DNA of 64,000 nt, taken from the NCBI GenBank assembly GCA_004297735.1, contig SCTI01000002.1, forward strand, positions 64,160 to 128,159, written 5' to 3'. Every line of letters starts with the position of its first letter. The stretch's first letter is position 1. Both the position numbers and the translations under genes were made by a program. Below are positions 23,255 to 57,347 of this stretch, piece after piece. Under the pieces are notes generated by a model. That model did no database searches. It had not been told where the DNA came from and was given only the letters and a program-made list of their open reading frames with translations. Origin of the DNA: Patescibacteria group bacterium (GTDB lineage Bacteria; Patescibacteriota; Saccharimonadia; UBA4664; SCTI01).

Positions 23255-23890
23255 GTGAGCAAAACCCTGCTCATCGTTGACGCCCCAAACATCAATTCAA
23301 CCGTGGCTAGCTTCCTGAGTGTTGTGTACCGGCAGCAGGGCTACATCCCGAAATCGTATGAACTACCTCACTACGAAGCGCTCATCGCTTATTGGTCACG
23401 ACCGGAGTCTGAACTCATAGCCTGGTTGATGGCCAATGTTAATCCAGGCCAGGCTGAAAGTCGCTGGCTCGCCTGTGCACGCAACGGAGGCTTTAGCGTA
23501 ATCACTAAGCCCAGATCCGTGGTCAACGGAGAGGTCGACTTCGATATAAATCCATCGGATATTGACGAAGAAATGGTAGCTCGCTTCAAGCAAACGCTTT
23601 GGAACGAACCGCTAGATCGAGTGATCGTGGTCTCCCACGACGGCAAGCGATGGCGAACGCTGTTAATGCTTGCTCGGCAGCTCGGCTTTAATGTCATCGT
23701 CATGGGGTTTCGCGAAGCCTCAGAGTGGCAAACGGTTGGTGCCTCCAGCAATCTCTGGACCTTTGTCGACCTACGTCGAGTCTCTGGCTTCATCGACGCA
23801 CCGCTCCCCGAGGTACCGCCCATTCGCCAGCCCATACAGCTCCTAGATCAGATGGAGCAGCTCCTCTGGCCTCCCGAGCACTCCGCTTAA
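23255..23890 (+). CDS. NYN/LabA-like (PIN-fold) domain protein
   Basis: N-terminal LIVDAPNIN and downstream acidic residues typical of NYN nucleases; GTG start with AAGAAGG RBS. Confidence 0.5.
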   Translation: MSKTLLIVDAPNINSTVASFLSVVYRQQGYIPKSYELPHYEALIAYWSRPESELIAWLMANVNPGQAESRWLACARNGGFSVITKPRSVVNGEVDFDINPSDIDEEMVARFKQTLWNEPLDRVIVVSHDGKRWRTLLMLARQLGFNVIVMGFREASEWQTVGASSNLWTFVDLRRVSGFIDAPLPEVPPIRQPIQLLDQMEQLLWPPEHSA

Positions 23891-26056: not shown

Positions 26057-26189
26057 TCTACTTAAGCTTACGGGTATTGTCGAACCAATATGAGATAAAC
26101 ATTCAGGGGATATGTGGTCTGGCCACCGGAGCGAGCTTATGCCCGCCCCGGTGAACCATGTTCGCTAACTGCGCGAACGCGACCTACTG

Positions 26190-27206
26190 CTACCAGCCGG
26201 CGGGATCGCCCATGGGGGCGATCGGGATGGCCGGCTGGGCCGGTGCAGGGGCCGGCACCGCGGGTGCTCCGTCGTCCGGAACTCCCGAGCTGTCGGGCCC
26301 GGTCGGCTCAGCGACATCGTCATCGGTGATGACGATCTTCTTGGCCGCCTTCTTGGCCTTGCGCCGGTCCCGCCATCCCGGCATCGAGTTGGCGAGCGAA
26401 GCCGCGAACTCCGGGTCTTCCGCCAGCCTACTCTTGAGCTGGGCAGACAGACCGTCGAGCCAGCCGTCGTCCTCGGCGAGGGCCCGGCCGACCTCGGTGG
26501 CAAAGGCCACCGGGTCGAGCTGATCGACCCGATCGGACAGAGCGGTCAGCTGATCCAGGAACCCGGGGTCATCCTCGGTGGCCTGGATGGTCTGAGCCAG
26601 CTCATTGAGACTGGTCAGAACCTCGGCCATCTGATCGCCAGACGGCGGCTGGCCGGGATCTCCGGTGCCACCGGCGGGAACCGGAGCGAGCGGCGGGCCC
26701 GGATCGGGGACCAGATCCGCCAGCTCCTTGCGCACCTCGCGCTCCGCCTGCGCCCTTCGGCGCTGCTGGAGCGCCACCTCATCGTCGAGCTCGAGCTCCT
26801 TAGCCCGAGCATCGATCACCCGGTCGGCGGCCTGCCTGAGGGAGTGCTCCCCCGCCTGGCGCTCCCGGCGAACCTCATGTCGCAGCGCGTCGAGCGAGGG
26901 CGGCTGGGGTGCCGTCTGCCGGAACTGGTCCAGCATCGACGCGACAGCCTCCTGAGCGGCCTGGCTGGCGATGCGCTCGGCCTCCTGCCGGGTCACACCG
27001 CCATCCTCGCGCCGCGAACGGCGCTGGGAGCCCTGCCTCGGAGTCGGGGACTCCTCAGCGGCAGGGGTGGGTGCCACCGGCGGTTCGGCCGGCGGAGCGT
27101 CCTGCGAGGGCGCCCCATCCGAGGCCGGAGCCTCGTCGGGGAATGCGTCATCGAGGGCGGAGGCGAGGTCGCCGCCGCCCGTTCGTGTACCGGCCATGTT
27201 GTTCAT
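26190..27206 (-). CDS. Hypothetical acidic Pro/Ala-rich, largely disordered protein (338 aa); island gene 3
   Basis: High-GC ORF, ATGA overlap with the upstream gene. Confidence 0.6.
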   Translation of the reverse strand: MNNMAGTRTGGGDLASALDDAFPDEAPASDGAPSQDAPPAEPPVAPTPAAEESPTPRQGSQRRSRREDGGVTRQEAERIASQAAQEAVASMLDQFRQTAPQPPSLDALRHEVRRERQAGEHSLRQAADRVIDARAKELELDDEVALQQRRRAQAEREVRKELADLVPDPGPPLAPVPAGGTGDPGQPPSGDQMAEVLTSLNELAQTIQATEDDPGFLDQLTALSDRVDQLDPVAFATEVGRALAEDDGWLDGLSAQLKSRLAEDPEFAASLANSMPGWRDRRKAKKAAKKIVITDDDVAEPTGPDSSGVPDDGAPAVPAPAPAQPAIPIAPMGDPAGW

Positions 27207-28540
27207 GCCTCCTGGGCAGTCGAGTTGAACTTCTTCTGAACCGCCGCCTCAACTTCGACGGCGACCTTCTTGATCACGTGGTTCGGAGCCTTCCCGCCAA
27301 AGTTGGCCTGGAGGAATCCGATCCACGCACGGGGGTCCTGCGCCGCTTCGCGGTTGCCCTTGAAGCTGGGGATGAGCTCACGGATCAGCGCTTGCTGAAT
27401 CCGCTCCTTCCACTGCTCGTCGGTCAGCGCCTCTTCAGCAGAGGAAGCCGGCGACGAACCGTTGACGGTCTGGGCTTGCTGGCCCATCGCTGGAGCGGTA
27501 CGGGACCGTAGTTCGGCCATCCGAGCCTTGAATCCAGCCGTGTCATCACTGACCTTCTCGCCAGCCTGAACCTCCTGTTCAGCCTGTTCCTTTAGCTCCT
27601 CGAAAGAAGCGTGGCGATGCAGGAGCCGCATCACAGCTTGCGTCAGCATGCCGGCGTTACGCGCCGGATAGCCGGCAACCAACATGGCCACCCGGAAGTA
27701 CCAGGACGTGACCGACGAAACCGAGGGATGGTTATCCCGCGAGTTCGTCGAGCCATGAACGTTCTCGTACTTCTCGCGCTGCATGTTGACCTTCAGGTCA
27801 CCCTGAAGAACGCTGGAGTAGCTGACGAAGGCGCCCTCCACCTTGAAGTGAGGGTCATTTTCGGGGTCGTGCCGGTAAGGCATCGATACTTCTGCGACGC
27901 TTAGCTCCGGCAATGCAGCCGTAACCAGCTCCAGCGCTTCTTCCCGACTCAGATCACGAGGATCATCCTTCGGGAAGCCCATGCGCCGAATTGCTTCTTG
28001 CACCATCTCCGGGTGCTTGCTGAGCATGTTGGGCGGATCGCCCAGATCTTGGACTGTGAGGGCCACGATGGGCTCCTCCTTTCCGGCGGGTCGCCCCGCC
28101 CTCTTGGCTTGATCAGGCCGCGCTGAGCGCGGTGCATCTTGGCGAGGACGGCATTGCCGCCTCCAGCTGCGAATCTGAGCACGAAGCTCACCATCCGACA
28201 CCGAGAACAGCGCCTTGGCTACCTCCTCCCGCTTACCCTGATACACAGGATGGCGGATACCCAGGACCCTCATCAGATCCTGTAGGTAATTGAAGAAAGC
28301 AACCTCGATCTCCTCCACCGAAGCGGCGGAAACCGGGCCGTTCTGGTCTTCCGGAACGACGAACTCGTACTTATTCCACACCACCACCCCGCGGTCGCGG
28401 CGGAAGTGAAAGTCCGACTGACGCCTCAGCGCTCGGTGGCGCAGTTGGCAAAGGACCTCCAGGGCTCCTTCTCTGTCGAGCTCAAGAGGATGAATTGAAT
28501 TCAACCCCAAAGCTGCAACAATGAAGGAGTGGTTGTACAT
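27203..28540 (-). CDS. Hypothetical protein (about 445 aa); island gene 2 (internal ATG with GGAGA RBS preferred over the longer ORF-track start at 28651)
   Basis: High-GC ORF; no recognisable family motif by eye. Confidence 0.6.
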   Translation of the reverse strand: MYNHSFIVAALGLNSIHPLELDREGALEVLCQLRHRALRRQSDFHFRRDRGVVVWNKYEFVVPEDQNGPVSAASVEEIEVAFFNYLQDLMRVLGIRHPVYQGKREEVAKALFSVSDGELRAQIRSWRRQCRPRQDAPRSARPDQAKRAGRPAGKEEPIVALTVQDLGDPPNMLSKHPEMVQEAIRRMGFPKDDPRDLSREEALELVTAALPELSVAEVSMPYRHDPENDPHFKVEGAFVSYSSVLQGDLKVNMQREKYENVHGSTNSRDNHPSVSSVTSWYFRVAMLVAGYPARNAGMLTQAVMRLLHRHASFEELKEQAEQEVQAGEKVSDDTAGFKARMAELRSRTAPAMGQQAQTVNGSSPASSAEEALTDEQWKERIQQALIRELIPSFKGNREAAQDPRAWIGFLQANFGGKAPNHVIKKVAVEVEAAVQKKFNSTAQEA

Positions 28541-28691
28541 CGTTTCTCCGTTGGTAACGGGTCTATCCGATGTCACGTGCCGCTCCTTTCGCGGTCGTGG
28601 GTTTGCAGTAGATCTCAACAGACTGTATTGGGTGCTTTTACACCACAACATAGCCCATGAATATCTATCTCTATTAAGCTGTCAAAGAGTT

Positions 28692-28713
28692 ATTGCCTAC
28701 AGATATAGGCAAT
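28692..28713. promoter_or_regulatory. Operator-like palindrome ATTGCCTA-CAGATA-TAGGCAAT in the AT-rich promoter region of the island operon
   Basis: Perfect 8 bp inverted repeat read directly. Confidence 0.45.
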
Positions 28714-28770
28714 AAAATAATTTATCATATTTTAGTTAAAAAGTCAATGGTTATTGCGAGCATAAGCTCA

Positions 28771-28816
28771 ATAAAAACAAAGGCGGGCGGAGGAGCTGGT
28801 GTGCTCCCCCGCCCGT
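28771..28816 (-). terminator. Strong intrinsic terminator (GC stem GGCGGGCGGAGGAGC/GCTCCCCCGCCCG plus TTTGTTTTTATT on the minus strand)
   Basis: Hairpin plus U-run downstream of the 299 aa gene. Confidence 0.8.
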
Positions 28817-28838
28817 TTCACCTGCCCGGCGAAGATGT

Positions 28839-29738
28839 TCAGGCCGCGACGGCCTGTTCGTCATTCCGGATGTCATCGCTCAACCGACAGAAAGAGTCGA
28901 GAGCTGCCAGCTTGAGCAGCAGATCCCGGTGGCTGGTCTGATCGTCGGTCGGATTGATCAGCGGACGCAGCAGCTCAGACGGCATGCCGCGAAGTGCCTC
29001 CTTGAGCTCTTTGCGGACGAGCTGCTCTCGCATCACGCAGTACCACTCATGAAGATGAACCCCGCCCCTATCGAGCTTCTCTACGTAGGACTCCGCCAGC
29101 AAGCAAGCAAGCTCTAGCTTTACCAGCTCATCCTCACTGCACTGCAGTACCGCAGTGACGCGTCCGGAAGTCAAGATTTGTAGCTCCGGGTTGGACTTAA
29201 GTGCCTCCAGGAGCGCCCTGTGGTTCTGCCGCAGGGCGTTGGCGCGCGCACCCACCTCTTTGCGGCGAACGATAGTCGAAGCCCACTGGTGAGCCCGTGT
29301 CATCAGATCGAACTTATCGATCGATTCCTCGGGCGAGGCATCTTCAGGGTGCGAATACAACATATCCCGCAAGAGCAAGCTGAGGTCACGCGGATAGGGG
29401 TTCGGATTGCCTAATGGGTACATCTTGACCAGGTTGCGTCGGTAGTACTCCACCATGCCGGCCAGCACCACCCCCAGCACTATCTCAGCTTCTGGGTTTG
29501 GCTGATCGAGGAGGTCCTCTTCGCCTTCGGCACAGAGCGTTGAGTCTACGCCCTGCAGCAACTCCACCTCATGAATAGTGAGGAAATTTTCACCTAGACG
29601 CGGGATGAAGTGCTCGGCGCTCGCACACGCTTGAGGCCACCACCGCAGCTCTTCTGTGCGGAAGTACTCCGCCACCGGATGCTTCTGTTCGAGGGCCGCC
29701 CTGGTTAGGGCAAGACTGGCATCGGTCGTGCTAGACAC
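28839..29738 (-). CDS. Hypothetical protein (299 aa, GTG start, GGGGAG RBS); island gene 1
   Basis: High-GC ORF with its own promoter and terminator. Confidence 0.6.
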   Translation of the reverse strand: MSSTTDASLALTRAALEQKHPVAEYFRTEELRWWPQACASAEHFIPRLGENFLTIHEVELLQGVDSTLCAEGEEDLLDQPNPEAEIVLGVVLAGMVEYYRRNLVKMYPLGNPNPYPRDLSLLLRDMLYSHPEDASPEESIDKFDLMTRAHQWASTIVRRKEVGARANALRQNHRALLEALKSNPELQILTSGRVTAVLQCSEDELVKLELACLLAESYVEKLDRGGVHLHEWYCVMREQLVRKELKEALRGMPSELLRPLINPTDDQTSHRDLLLKLAALDSFCRLSDDIRNDEQAVAA

Positions 29739-29781
29739 GTCACTCCCCTTTCGGGATTGAACAACAAAGATGTGTGGTGCG

Positions 29782-29799
29782 CTTGGTGTTCACACCAAG
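29782..29799. promoter_or_regulatory. Palindrome CTTGGTGT-TC-ACACCAAG just downstream of a TTGTAA-17-TAAAGT promoter for the 299 aa gene
   Basis: Perfect 8 bp inverted repeat. Confidence 0.45.
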
Positions 29800-29851
29800 A
29801 TTAAGCGCTACTTTACCACTTTTAAGATGGTTTTACAACCGGATATCAGAT

Positions 29852-30178
29852 CTATAAATCATTCATGATCCGAGCGATGTGCTCGGCGTATTGGCCGCTG
29901 CCATCATGTTTAAAGTGGATGCGTGGCACAAACTTAGTGGTCATGCGGGCCGCTACCGCCCGTTGGATCTGGCTGCGAGCGCCAACCGCACGGCGCATCA
30001 AGGCCTCTTGCTCTTCCTCGGAGTCGGCAATCACGCTCAACCAAACCGTTGCCTGGCGCAGGTCCGGCGAGACATCAACGGTGGTAACGCTCAGCTGCGG
30101 GGCGGCTAGCTGCTCTCGAAGTTCGGCGGCAACCAGCTGTTGCACCAAGCTAGCGACTTTGTCGGTACGTTGACTCAT
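29852..30178 (-). CDS. rbfA: Ribosome-binding factor A
   Basis: 108 aa RbfA; infB-rbfA order. Confidence 0.88.
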   Translation of the reverse strand: MSQRTDKVASLVQQLVAAELREQLAAPQLSVTTVDVSPDLRQATVWLSVIADSEEEQEALMRRAVGARSQIQRAVAARMTTKFVPRIHFKHDGSGQYAEHIARIMNDL

Positions 30179-40158: not shown

Positions 40159-40272
40159 ATCCGGCACCGACCTACTTTCCCCATAAAGAGTATCATCGGC
40201 GCTGAGGAGCTTAACTTCGGTGTTCGGGATGGGAACCGGTGTGGCCTCCTCGCTAAAAGCACCGGGCTACCA
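40159..40272 (-). rRNA. rrf: 5S ribosomal RNA
   Basis: Reverse complement matches the bacterial 5S core (..CACACCGGTTCCCATCCCGAACACCGAAGTTAAGC..GCGCCGATGATAC..). Confidence 0.9.
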
Positions 40273-40289
40273 GCTAAACACGTGGTTTA

Positions 40290-43550
<3,261 letters not shown>

Positions 43551-43960
43551 TTACGATTCGTTTGACGAGCGATGTATGGTTACAAATTCATGTTTCCACC
43601 CATCACTCATTGGTTGGTATTGCATCTGTTTATGATCGTAAAAATTCATAAACAGTACCCAAAACAATTACATGGGAAGTAATTGTTTCGTCTTAAAATT
43701 CATTTAATTTTCAAAAAACAACTCCGCGGTTTGTACCTCGCGGAGCCCACATTCAAACAGACAAATTTACCTAGCCCGAGAACGTGCCTCCGTTAGTGCT
43801 GGTTAATTGTCTACTCATATATGAGCTCCAATAGTCGAAATTAAGAGTACCAAAATAACCAGGTGGTGTAAAGAGGTTAATTGTGACAAAAATAACAACG
43901 CCCCTCGCAGGTATTTACAACACTACGAGTGACGCTGAAATGTCGGGATAAATTAAGCGA

Positions 43961-44607: not shown

Positions 44608-44781
44608 ACTACCTGATTCCTATTTAGGTTTTGTTTGGTACCTCTCTATTATTTCACGTCACCCAGCATAAGCACAATAGTGAGTTGGTTTGAATGATTA
44701 CGCTTATGCATGCATATAGCTGTTATGCATAGTATTATTACCCGGTACGCCGTGTACGTCCCTACCCAAGGAGAGTCCACT

Positions 44782-45117
44782 GTGACCACCGCCACCGCAC
44801 CGATCATCTCGGTTACACCGGGTCGTTCACTGGCCCAGCGCATGGACGCGCTGCAGAAGGCCAACGAGATCCGTACTCGTCGTGCTCAGCTCAAGCGCGA
44901 CCTCAAGGCCGGCCGAGCGTCGATCCGTGAGATCCTGCTGAACCCGCCGGTGTGGCTCGAGACCGCCAAGGTCTTCGACATGCTGCTGGCGACGCCGAAG
45001 TACGGCCGGGTCAAGGTCAACAAGATCCTGGCCCAGTGCCGCATCTCCCCCAGCAAGACGATGGGCGGTCTGTCGGAGCGCCAGCGCAGCGAGCTGGCCT
45101 CCCTACTCCGCCAGTAG
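44782..45117 (+). CDS. Actinobacterial-type integration host factor (mIHF/sIHF family), paralog 1 (GTG start, AAGGAGAG RBS)
   Basis: 111 aa; aligns along its length with mycobacterial mIHF (..QRxxALxKAxxxRxxRAxLKxxLKxG..G.VKVxxxL..I.P.....GLxxRQRxxL..). Confidence 0.8.
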   Translation: MTTATAPIISVTPGRSLAQRMDALQKANEIRTRRAQLKRDLKAGRASIREILLNPPVWLETAKVFDMLLATPKYGRVKVNKILAQCRISPSKTMGGLSERQRSELASLLRQ

Positions 45118-45256: not shown

Positions 45257-45685
45257 GTGACGACGGCAACCATTACTCTGCCGCCCAGGAAGGGTGAGCA
45301 ACCGCAGCACTTGGCCGCTCTTGAGCGCGCCAACGAAGTTCGACTGGCCCGAGCCGAGCTCAAGCGCAGGATCGGCACTGGCGAGACCAACGTCAGCAGA
45401 ATTGTGCTGTCGACCCCTCCAGAAGCAGCCGGCATGACCGTGGCTGATCTGCTGATGGCGCAAAAGCGCTGGGGTCGAACTCGCACGCGCAAGTTCCTGC
45501 TCGGGATTCCGATCACCGAAACCAAGACGGTTGGGAGCCTGACCGAACGGCAGCGCAACGCCATCGCCAAGGCCCTGGAGGCTCCCACCGAGGCCTCAAC
45601 GACCACTCCGAGCCGCGAAGAGCGCATCGAGGCTTTCGCCGCTCAGATGCAGCGCTCGGGCGAGCCCGGTCGAACGGCTAGCTAA
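45257..45685 (+). CDS. Actinobacterial-type integration host factor (mIHF/sIHF family), paralog 2 (GTG start) with extended C-terminus
   Basis: 142 aa; same VTTAT N-terminus and mIHF core as paralog 1. Confidence 0.78.
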   Translation: MTTATITLPPRKGEQPQHLAALERANEVRLARAELKRRIGTGETNVSRIVLSTPPEAAGMTVADLLMAQKRWGRTRTRKFLLGIPITETKTVGSLTERQRNAIAKALEAPTEASTTTPSREERIEAFAAQMQRSGEPGRTAS

Positions 45686-45826: not shown

Positions 45827-45903
45827 GGGCTTGTAGCTCAGCTGGTTAGAGCGCGTCACTGATAATGACGAGGTCGCAGGTTCGAGTCCTGCCAAGCCCA
45901 CCA
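45827..45903 (+). tRNA. tRNA-Ile (anticodon GAT)
   Basis: Cloverleaf with 7 bp acceptor stem, GGTTCGAGTCC T-arm, CTGATAA anticodon loop, CCA end; TTGCCA-17-TTAAAT promoter upstream. Confidence 0.92.
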
Positions 45904-45924
45904 TTTTTGTATCTATCCCCACTT

Positions 45925-46001
45925 GGGGCATTAGCTCAGCTGGCTAGAGCACCTGCTTTGCAAGCAGGGGGTCATCGGTTCGAATCCGATATGCTCCACC
46001 A
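45925..46001 (+). tRNA. tRNA-Ala (anticodon TGC) with G3:U70 identity pair
   Basis: Cloverleaf, CTTTGCAA anticodon loop, GGTTCGAATCC T-arm, CCA end. Confidence 0.92.

Positions 46002-55835: not shown

Positions 55836-57347
<1,512 letters not shown>

Follow-up and report, generated by a model that had tools for sequence, protein, structure and literature searches.

Genes at the locus and their order in related lineages

The locus described here lies in a window of 64,000 nucleotides from a metagenome-assembled genome of the Patescibacteria group (CPR; contig SCTI01000002.1); the window is the whole stretch of DNA analysed, and its positions are used throughout. Downstream of rbfA, three open reading frames (ORFs) follow one another on the minus strand. 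The first, g299 (28839..29738), encodes 299 amino acids (aa) from a GTG start behind AAAGGGGAG and occupies what we call the gene A slot. The second, g457 or gB (27203..28576), encodes 457 aa from a GTG behind AAGGAG, or 445 aa from the ATG at 28540 called by NCBI, and the third, g338 or gC (26190..27206), encodes 338 aa. NCBI names the three products hypothetical protein EPO04_02075, EPO04_02080 and EPO04_02085, Patescibacteria group bacterium. An earlier note on this DNA had described a three-gene island with an overlap of its last two genes; the three minus-strand ORFs are indeed present, the last two overlap by ATGA, and Shine–Dalgarno sequences stand before the starts of both gB and gC. 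Loci and proteins of relatives are designated by L and P numbers, respectively.

Upstream, the minus strand carries rpsA (33303-32158), a YlxR-like ORF, infB (31974-30181) and rbfA (29852..30178, minus; PF02033, E 1.7e-20). The latter, found at the same position in L005, L006 and L009, is the last conserved gene of the rpsA-ylxR-infB-rbfA block and the upstream anchor of the locus. The downstream anchor, beyond gC on the same strand, is the gene of a 603-aa membrane protein (26056-24245) with hydrophobic segments at residues 312-482, at the 3' side of which lies a DUF5663 gene (24241-23912, minus). Further on, the plus strand carries an NYN gene, a small ORF, an ATP-binding cassette (ABC) transporter gene, fmt, def and priA.

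An exhaustive phmmer scan of 1.84 billion representative proteins with gB returned two weak matches, P0005 and P0006 (E ~2e-4), and the contigs and cluster mates of these two proteins gave three lineages of relatives (L004/L005, L006-L008 and L009/L010). The order that they have in common is rpsA-ylxR-infB-rbfA-gene A-gB (431-458 aa)-gC (318-327 aa)-LysM membrane protein (582-604 aa)-DUF5663-ABC-fmt-def-priA-secD. Specifically, identities to the window are 81% for IF2, 83-85% for RpsA, 80-84% for Def, 70% for the ABC transporter and 65% for Fmt, and they amount to 41% for DUF5663, 26-28% for gB and 24-26% for the membrane protein, which on account of this last value also counts as fast-evolving. 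The gB-gC pair stands at the same site in four of the four lineages recovered, a small sample, and no lineage without it was found among them. Moreover, the pairwise identities of gB and gC rank as those of the backbone do, L005 and L009 being closest, followed by L006 and then by the window. Contigs break frequently at the locus (L001, L003, L004 and L008).

These data do not agree with an island inserted into a syntenic region, as had been proposed, the same slots being found between rbfA and the membrane-protein, DUF5663, ABC and fmt genes in three other lineages. In addition, no integrase, recombinase, transposase or other mobility domain was detected in any ORF between 23.2 and 30.2 kb, no flanking repeat pair of the att type was found, and the only tRNA genes lie at 45.8-46.0 kb.

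The slot directly after rbfA is replaceable: it holds g299 in the window and in L001, and an unrelated NYN-like gene in the three other lineages. The gene A products of L005, L006 and L009 (256-268 aa) are weakly NYN-like, with a similarity to the NYN protein of the window at E 2e-4; no BLAST match connects them with g299, and their genes have the fraction of G and C at third codon positions (GC3) of the backbone (0.52-0.58). The proposed three-gene module is hence better described as a gB-gC unit plus a separate slot, since an unrelated gene of normal GC content replaces g299 in three of the four lineages; what co-occurs in every related genome found is only gB with gC, not a trio. The g299 product itself is a soluble, acidic, all-helical protein, for which the word-indexed searches gave one homologue, P0003 on the 1.5-kb contig L001 (55% identity). 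Its AlphaFold2 model is confident and helical only at residues 155-295, the fold search with it returned non-specific hits and no significant match, and a Pfam scan detected no helix-turn-helix or other DNA-binding domain.

Two observations concern the neighbours of the locus. In the window, the NYN-domain gene (23255-23890, plus) stands between the DUF5663 and ABC transporter genes; the relatives have no gene at this position, and their distantly NYN-like gene is found directly after rbfA (9044-9850 in L005, 8974-9744 in L006), which suggests that the arrival of g299 was connected with a relocation or replacement. The membrane protein, called with 595 aa instead of 603 on L002 (another assembly of the same organism), has its LysM-bearing counterparts of 582-604 aa at the same place in L005 and L006, and it lacks the C-terminal LysM domain of the L005 protein (PF01476, E 2.3e-8, above the Pfam cutoff); the counterparts in L006 and L009 have a weak precomputed LysM match.

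Transcription signals and leaders of the two units

The proposal of two transcription units with signals of their own was confirmed as regards the terminator of the first unit and the promoter of the second. In front of g299, a weak sigma-70-like sequence, TTGTAA-17-TAAAGT (29810..29838, minus), lies 14 nt past the rbfA stop codon, and its -10 element aligns with TATAGT in L001. The sequence put forward as the g299 promoter is therefore present; it matches the consensus at only 8 of 12 positions and was not called by the promoter scan. With no terminator between it and rbfA, transcripts of the infB-rbfA operon may read through into g299. A few bases past the likely transcript start stands the inverted repeat CTTGGTGT-GA-ACACCAAG (29782..29799, minus), with 8-bp arms and a 2-nt centre, followed by a conserved leader of the form GCGCACCACACA...TTGTTGTTCAAT...AAAGGGGAGTGAC-GTG. 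In L001, a different repeat (GCGATC-cagct-GATCGC) is found in its place, and the leader after it is conserved. As RNA, the repeat region of g299 folds no better than shuffled sequences (z -1.0). The unit ends with a strong intrinsic terminator, as had been noted (28771..28815, minus), which consists of a 13-bp stem at 28784-28815 with 11 GC pairs and of a T-run; it is nearly identical in L001 and has functional equivalents in L005 and L006. When the window is compared with L001, the g299 leader, the terminator and the gB promoter are visibly better conserved than the coding DNA of g299.

The promoter of the gB-gC unit, called by the scan, is TTGACT-17-TG-a-TAAATT (28719..28747, minus), with an extended -10 element. 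Its consensus across the lineages, TTGACT-17-TGnTAWATT, is almost invariant, and in the alignment the core TTGACTTTTTA..TATGATA.ATT is invariant in four of four loci. A second inverted repeat (28690..28715, minus) begins at about +4 of the predicted transcript and has two 10-nt arms with a 6-nt spacer. As RNA it would form an 11-bp hairpin of -12.7 kcal/mol, and none of 500 shuffled sequences folds as well. At the same offset, hairpins of other sequences are found in L005 and L009 (9 bp), in L006 (7 bp) and in L001 (6+2 bp); those of L005 and L009 contain G.U pairs and that of L006 a U.G pair. By chance, an 8-bp inverted repeat is not rare in 4.4 kb, while a 10-bp one is.

Both repeats had been described as perfect palindromes and as operators. 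In fact, both are interrupted inverted repeats (8+2+8 and 10+6+10), and, across the lineages, the repeats differ in sequence but stay at the transcript's 5' end, and those of two lineages contain G.U pairs. Because position is kept without sequence, because G.U pairs occur and because the two repeats of the window are dissimilar, the comparison favours 5'-terminal RNA hairpins rather than operators.

Downstream of the hairpin, a conserved box, TTTGACAGCT (28677..28686, minus), is found 32-34 nt after the -10 element in every lineage (at about 9968-9977 in L005), and no usable -10 element follows it. The rest of the leader of about 140 nt (28577..28676, minus) contains a second long hairpin (~28609-28667), a CA-rich stretch and the AAGGAG Shine–Dalgarno sequence; the fold of the gB leader of the window has a z of -4.84. 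At the equivalent place, the relatives have a second hairpin of the form GGUYC-GCAA-GGACC or GGGUC-UGUU-GACCC, then UGYAG, with loops of the GNRA type in L005 and L006. A search of the leaders against Rfam gave no match. The evidence for these hairpins consists of folds of the individual sequences, RNAalifold on the four leaders being uninformative owing to a poor MAFFT alignment.

At the other end of the unit, a terminator-like hairpin follows gC in L005, where gB-gC is therefore a unit of its own; in the window, no T-run terminator was found after gC. In L001, where the contig ends, the gene behind the same promoter and leader (1318-1515) encodes an N-terminus (66 aa) that resembles neither that of g457 nor those of the gB proteins of the relatives, and it may be a gB variant or a different cassette.

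Products, divergence and base composition of gB and gC

No described family accounts for the three window proteins, in line with the earlier note: Pfam, PHROGs, NCBIfam and PADLOC gave nothing significant for them or for 8 relatives, PADLOC-DB 2.0 gave only noise for the same proteins (E 0.03-0.04), and sequence-profile searches of the PDB gave only coiled-coil or Arg-rich noise (ATP synthase b, TPR, lambda N). A role as a defence system thus found no support from PADLOC or PHROG. Word-indexed homology searches over 5.8 billion proteins retrieved only the window's own copies and the one homologue of g299. Scans of IMG/VR, GTDB genomes and JGI metagenomes with alignments of g299 and of gB and with two conserved non-coding 23-27-mers gave no match; for gB, the searches covered the 1.84 billion representatives, phages, plasmids and IMG/VR, and for g299 and the conserved DNA they covered these sources as well as genomes and metagenomes. 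Similarly, no match came from tblastn searches of phages with g457, g299 and L005 gB or of plasmids with L005 gB, and nothing relevant was found in the literature on the sequencing-run accessions or on hypervariable or GC islands of Saccharibacteria. The description of all three products as orphans needs amending, g299 having its one homologue and gB a small family; gC has positional counterparts only.

The gB protein is soluble and belongs to a small clade-restricted family, whose members P0005-P0008 and L009 gB share 26-28% identity with it (pairwise E 1e-13). The conserved blocks are LG(L/F)P..P, AGYPA.N.G.LT.A..LL.R..(S/T)F and NG. In the relatives, the N-terminus of gB carries a basic tail and a Cys/His motif, a possible hint of nucleic-acid binding; the window gB has neither, and shows a weak internal duplication of a 21-aa motif (E 0.03). 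As to remote homology, fold comparison could be completed for g299, without significant match, and not for gB, whose AlphaFold2 model, built on 3 sequences, is too poor for a fold search (predicted local distance difference test, pLDDT, 46). The gC protein is acidic (isoelectric point 4.4), rich in Ala, Pro and Asp and largely disordered or coiled-coil, 77% of it being Ala, Pro, Gly, Asp, Glu, Arg, Ser, Thr or Gln. Its counterparts of 318-327 aa in the relatives share its position, size, composition and layout. All three window proteins are acidic, and no hydrophobic segment and, by eye, no signal peptide was seen in them.

Some more specific candidates were considered, the first three of which were rejected. 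A match to a microvirus DNA pilot protein (phrog_27063, E 0.0018) falls on a helical stretch of the window gB only, is absent in four homologues and is accompanied by no capsid or replication gene. The Cys-rich motif of DUF5763 (PF19067) was matched by P0006 only, with 16.8 bits against a cutoff of 26.3, and the window gB has no Cys/His motif. As for a target of a diversity-generating retroelement, no repeat of the island was found elsewhere in the 64-kb window, there are no paralogues, and the variation extends over whole genes with indels; no scan of the window was aimed specifically at a reverse transcriptase. In a comparison with polymorphic toxin-immunity pairs, divergence was highest in the C-terminal part of gB and over the first ~40 codons of gC; domain scans detected no toxin, trafficking or immunity domain, and most of gC is 93-99% identical where the gB C-terminus is replaced.

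The pace at which the two genes diverge is best seen between L005 and L009, two members of one species. Core proteins of the two are 99.5-100% identical, with 0.01-0.06 synonymous substitutions per site (dS), and their gene A products are 99.6% identical. For gB, amino-acid identity is 65%, the rate of non-synonymous substitution (dN) is 0.26 and dS is 0.36 (dN/dS 0.73); for gC, identity is 80%, dN 0.135 and dS 0.13 (dN/dS 1.0). The next gene, encoding the LysM protein, has 95% identity, dN 0.025 and dS 0.33 (dN/dS 0.075). Promoter and leader are 98-100% identical and divergence begins inside gB, peaking at the 3' end of gB and at its junction with gC, where nucleotide identity is 40-50% and indels occur; mid-gC is back at 93-99% identity, and divergence rises again at the gC 3' end. 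Thereafter, a tract of ~90-93% identity runs through LysM, DUF5663 and part of the ABC gene, until 100% is reached again at about position 15,500 of L005. On its identity profile, this tract appears to be a recombination import with hyperdivergent mosaic patches. Within gB, the ratio of non-synonymous to synonymous differences per site (pN/pS) is ~0.2 in the first 120 codons and 0.5-1.3 in the remainder, and codons 121-159 contain 13 non-synonymous changes and no synonymous one. L005 and L006 share 89% identity in IF2, 58% in gene A and 44% in gB and gC. Such strain divergence of gB and gC would be compatible with an interface of interaction or conflict, and to this extent the suggestion of a host-interaction system survives; its alternative, defence, found no match, as said above.

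As regards base composition, the three-gene block of the window averages ~60.6% GC versus ~54% for the window as a whole, so that the high-GC block of the earlier note exists. It is uneven, however: g299 has 58.9% GC (GC3 0.70) and gB 59.4% (GC3 0.69), at a backbone GC3 of ~0.60 and a GC3 of 0.67 in rbfA, and gC alone is a clear outlier (71.5%, GC3 0.82). The same holds for codon usage, since the Karlin codon bias of g299 (0.32) and gB (0.35) falls inside the backbone spread (0.26 +/- 0.09) and only that of gC (0.48) deviates from it. In the annotated frame, GC by codon position follows GC3 > GC1 > GC2.

In the relatives, the contrast is much stronger, with a GC3 of 0.81-0.86 in gB and 0.90-0.92 in gC versus 0.47-0.55 in the backbone; A makes up 1-3% of the third codon positions of gB and gC and 19% of those of infB. 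We compared L005 and L009 at four-fold degenerate sites with identical amino acids, taking LysM, DUF5663, ABC, infB and priA as neighbours. Exchanges between C and G account for 25 of 51 differences in gB and gC and for 7 of 130 in the neighbours (odds ratio 17, p 8e-11). When the third positions were polarised with L006, gB showed 53 changes within the strong bases G and C (S>S), 24 from strong to weak (S>W) and 9 from weak to strong (W>S), compared with 5, 35 and 32 in LysM. A comparable result was obtained between L005 and L006 (48 of 93 differences in gB and gC versus 78 of 726 in the neighbours, p 8e-19); here, backbone four-fold sites are 43-65% different, and the GC content of four-fold sites in gB and gC is still 0.80-0.86. 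Since synonymous sites have turned over and G or C has nevertheless been kept, GC is maintained now and is not a relic of transfer; on these counts, a force acting at present on gB and gC only appears to keep their GC high in the relatives, LysM, DUF5663 and ABC having normal GC in the same recombination tract. The view that high GC marks an acquisition is not upheld, given a GC3 of 0.8-0.9 in relatives after such turnover. The force in question may be selection on the nucleotide sequence or the mRNA, locally biased conversion, or exchange within a pool of high-GC alleles. An explanation by antisense genes was dropped, as the long antisense ORFs of the window have no conserved equivalent in the relatives.

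A second GC-rich patch of the window, at 45-47 kb (60-62% GC), includes two tandem paralogous genes of 135 and 142 aa with an S13-like H2TH domain (44710-45117 and 45257-45685, plus; PF22525, E 8.5e-7 and 6e-3, respectively), the former with a GC3 of 0.80. We take this domain to be the fold of actinobacterial mIHF-type nucleoid proteins. The pair is a further candidate for genes of high GC content in the genome. In the same part of the window, genes for tRNA-Ile(GAT) and tRNA-Ala(TGC) lie side by side (45827-46001, plus), as in a typical rRNA spacer but outside any rRNA operon. The 5S and 23S rRNA genes are adjacent (40159-43552, minus) and the 16S gene lies about 12 kb away (55838-57346, minus), so that the rRNA genes are not linked. 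An insertion in the 23S gene is suggested by its match, which is 3172 nt long versus 2925 nt for the model.

Interpretation of the locus

We read these data as describing a vertically inherited, hypervariable two-part chromosomal locus of a Patescibacteria clade, and not an inserted island, with a probability of roughly 60%. Synteny, the two-part structure, the conservation of promoter and leader, the evolutionary rates and the GC maintained in relatives are the observations on which this reading is built. One part is the replaceable single-gene slot directly after rbfA. The other is the gB-gC operon, found in every relative recovered and predicted to be transcribed from a near-consensus extended -10 promoter, with a leader of at least ~140 nt in which a 5'-terminal hairpin, probably stabilising the mRNA, precedes a strong Shine–Dalgarno sequence. 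From promoter quality, the Shine–Dalgarno sequence and the hairpin, we infer a high expression of gB-gC. Both products are soluble, acidic and partly disordered, evolve as proteins about 10 times faster than their neighbours and are mosaic between strains by recombination, and the third codon positions of their genes in relatives are actively held at G or C (GC3 0.8-0.9 in genomes of ~0.5). This gene-specific maintenance of GC is the most interesting feature of the locus. As a best guess at their role, and with considerable doubt on our side, gB and gC can be pictured as an abundant pair under diversifying or very relaxed selection at an interface of interaction, be it with a host cell, with phages or at the cell envelope, possibly in concert with the fast-evolving membrane protein encoded next to them.

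Several points weigh against this reading. The sample comprises four lineages and about six alleles, all of them on metagenome contigs, and the clade may have acquired the locus horizontally early in its history. The GC3 excess of the window's own gB is small (0.69 vs 0.60) and its codon bias unremarkable; the strong compositional case rests on the relatives and not on the window. Part of the divergence between L005 and L009 is a recombination import of ~5.4 kb, which extends over LysM, DUF5663 and part of ABC as well; the dN/dS values near 1, obtained by the Nei-Gojobori method and rough in badly aligned patches, fit diversifying and relaxed selection alike. Finally, homology of the window gC with the gC of the relatives is not demonstrable by hhalign (probability 0.35%).

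A recently acquired three-gene island, serving as an accessory system of defence or host interaction, was what the first reading of this DNA had proposed, on the strength of a GC content above the backbone, especially in gC, of a promoter and a terminator of its own and of the lack of any family match for proteins nearly absent from 5.8 billion database entries. We now regard it as very improbable. The synteny largely refutes it, the same slots and neighbours being found in lineages at 81% IF2 identity, and to this one has to add that gB and gC identities rank as the backbone, that neither an integrase nor an att repeat nor an adjacent tRNA is present, that g299 stands outside the conserved unit and that synonymous sites have turned over with GC kept; no allele matches PADLOC. 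A different role for transfer, rather unlikely in our opinion, would make the site a fixed landing place where gB-gC alleles are overwritten through homologous recombination on the promoter and downstream flanks, from an external high-GC pool such as an unseen mobile element or the DNA of a high-GC host, for example Actinobacteria. GC would then be a donor signature, continually refreshed. It would fit the 1-3% of A at third positions, which resembles high-GC genomes, the near identity of promoter and flanks around very divergent genes, the clear recombination tract with its mosaic patches between L005 and L009, the unlike beginning of the L001 gene and the frequent contig breaks. However, no homologue was found outside these Patescibacteria contigs (among 1.84 billion representatives, phages, plasmids and IMG/VR) and no match when genomes and metagenomes were scanned with g299 or conserved DNA as seed; moreover, a continual import is hard to combine with gB and gC identities that follow the backbone and with the normal GC of LysM, DUF5663 and ABC inside the tract.

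It is also conceivable, though quite improbable, that gB and gC are not functional proteins at all and that selection acts on a GC-rich property of the nucleic acid (a structured RNA or a DNA feature) or on any disordered polypeptide, long ORFs persisting because stop codons are rare in GC-rich DNA. The dN/dS of 0.7-1.0, the visible selection on synonymous-site composition, the occurrence of long antisense ORFs and the absence of conserved sequence between gC of the window and of the relatives would all be expected in that case. What speaks for proteins is that amino-acid blocks of gB are kept at 26% identity where the DNA is saturated, that pN/pS is ~0.2 over the 120 N-terminal codons of gB, that GC follows the order GC3 > GC1 > GC2 in the annotated frame, that a Shine–Dalgarno sequence stands before both starts, and that four lineages have ORFs of similar length, 431-457 and 318-338 aa. 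Improbable, too, is a regulated two-unit module in which the inverted repeats would be operators for a regulator encoded at the locus, such as g299: the two repeats have unrelated sequences, a hairpin of another sequence and with G.U pairs stands there in relatives whose gene A is different, and g299 has only non-specific fold matches and no detected DNA-binding domain.

The hypervariable, vertically inherited locus that we favour can be compared with known systems. In marine and halophilic prokaryotes, replacement-type flexible genomic islands ('metagenomic islands') are hypervariable loci that always occupy the same site amid core genes. The present locus resembles them in its fixed position between core genes in all relatives, in a strain divergence far above that of the core, in the non-homologous replacement within one slot, in its recombination tracts and in its assembly breaks. 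It differs in being tiny (3.6 kb, three genes), in having no glycosyltransferase or surface-polysaccharide genes, in products without signal peptide or membrane segment and in a GC content that is above the backbone instead of below it and is actively maintained. With classical horizontally acquired islands it shares an atypical composition, transcription signals of its own and products without an assigned role; unlike them, it shows no mobility gene, att or tRNA border, patchy distribution or GC amelioration. 5'-terminal stem-loops stabilise bacterial mRNAs, as do the ompA-type hairpins of 5' untranslated regions in Escherichia coli and the 5' stabilisers of Bacillus. By analogy, both transcripts of the locus would have a stable stem within a few nucleotides of the predicted 5' end, whose position is kept and whose sequence is not; the additional TTTGACAGCT box and the second leader hairpin, unmatched in Rfam, have no known counterpart there. 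Finally, population genetics has established that synonymous sites of bacteria can be subject to genome-wide selection, or biased gene conversion, in favour of GC. The excess of GC-preserving synonymous change over neighbouring genes is of the same kind, except that it concerns two adjacent genes only, is extreme (GC3 0.9 vs 0.5) and leaves the flanks of the tract unaffected.

Patescibacteria genomes are rich in unannotated genes, and one 'orphan island' among them can now be read as a stable clade-wide locus. It offers a handle on strain-level diversification, combining a near-invariant promoter and leader with proteins that are 65-80% identical where the core is identical. It is also a natural example of gene-by-gene GC maintenance, with a GC3 of ~0.9 beside 0.5 in the same recombination tract, which is not predicted by mutation bias, by amelioration after transfer or by genome-wide biased conversion. 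A bolder reading, which we consider unlikely at present, is that of an undescribed kind of locus, namely a strongly expressed, fast-diversifying pair that a local, gene-specific force would hold at a high-GC composition and that would mark a symbiosis interface. It would imply either selection at the nucleotide level on two genes or a continual exchange of alleles with a hidden high-GC pool (a host, or an element that shuttles between it and its epibiont), in the mid-GC genomes of ultra-small, probably host-dependent bacteria. Should the pair indeed act at the interface with a host or with phages, it would provide both a marker of the epibiotic lifestyle and an entry point to its study.

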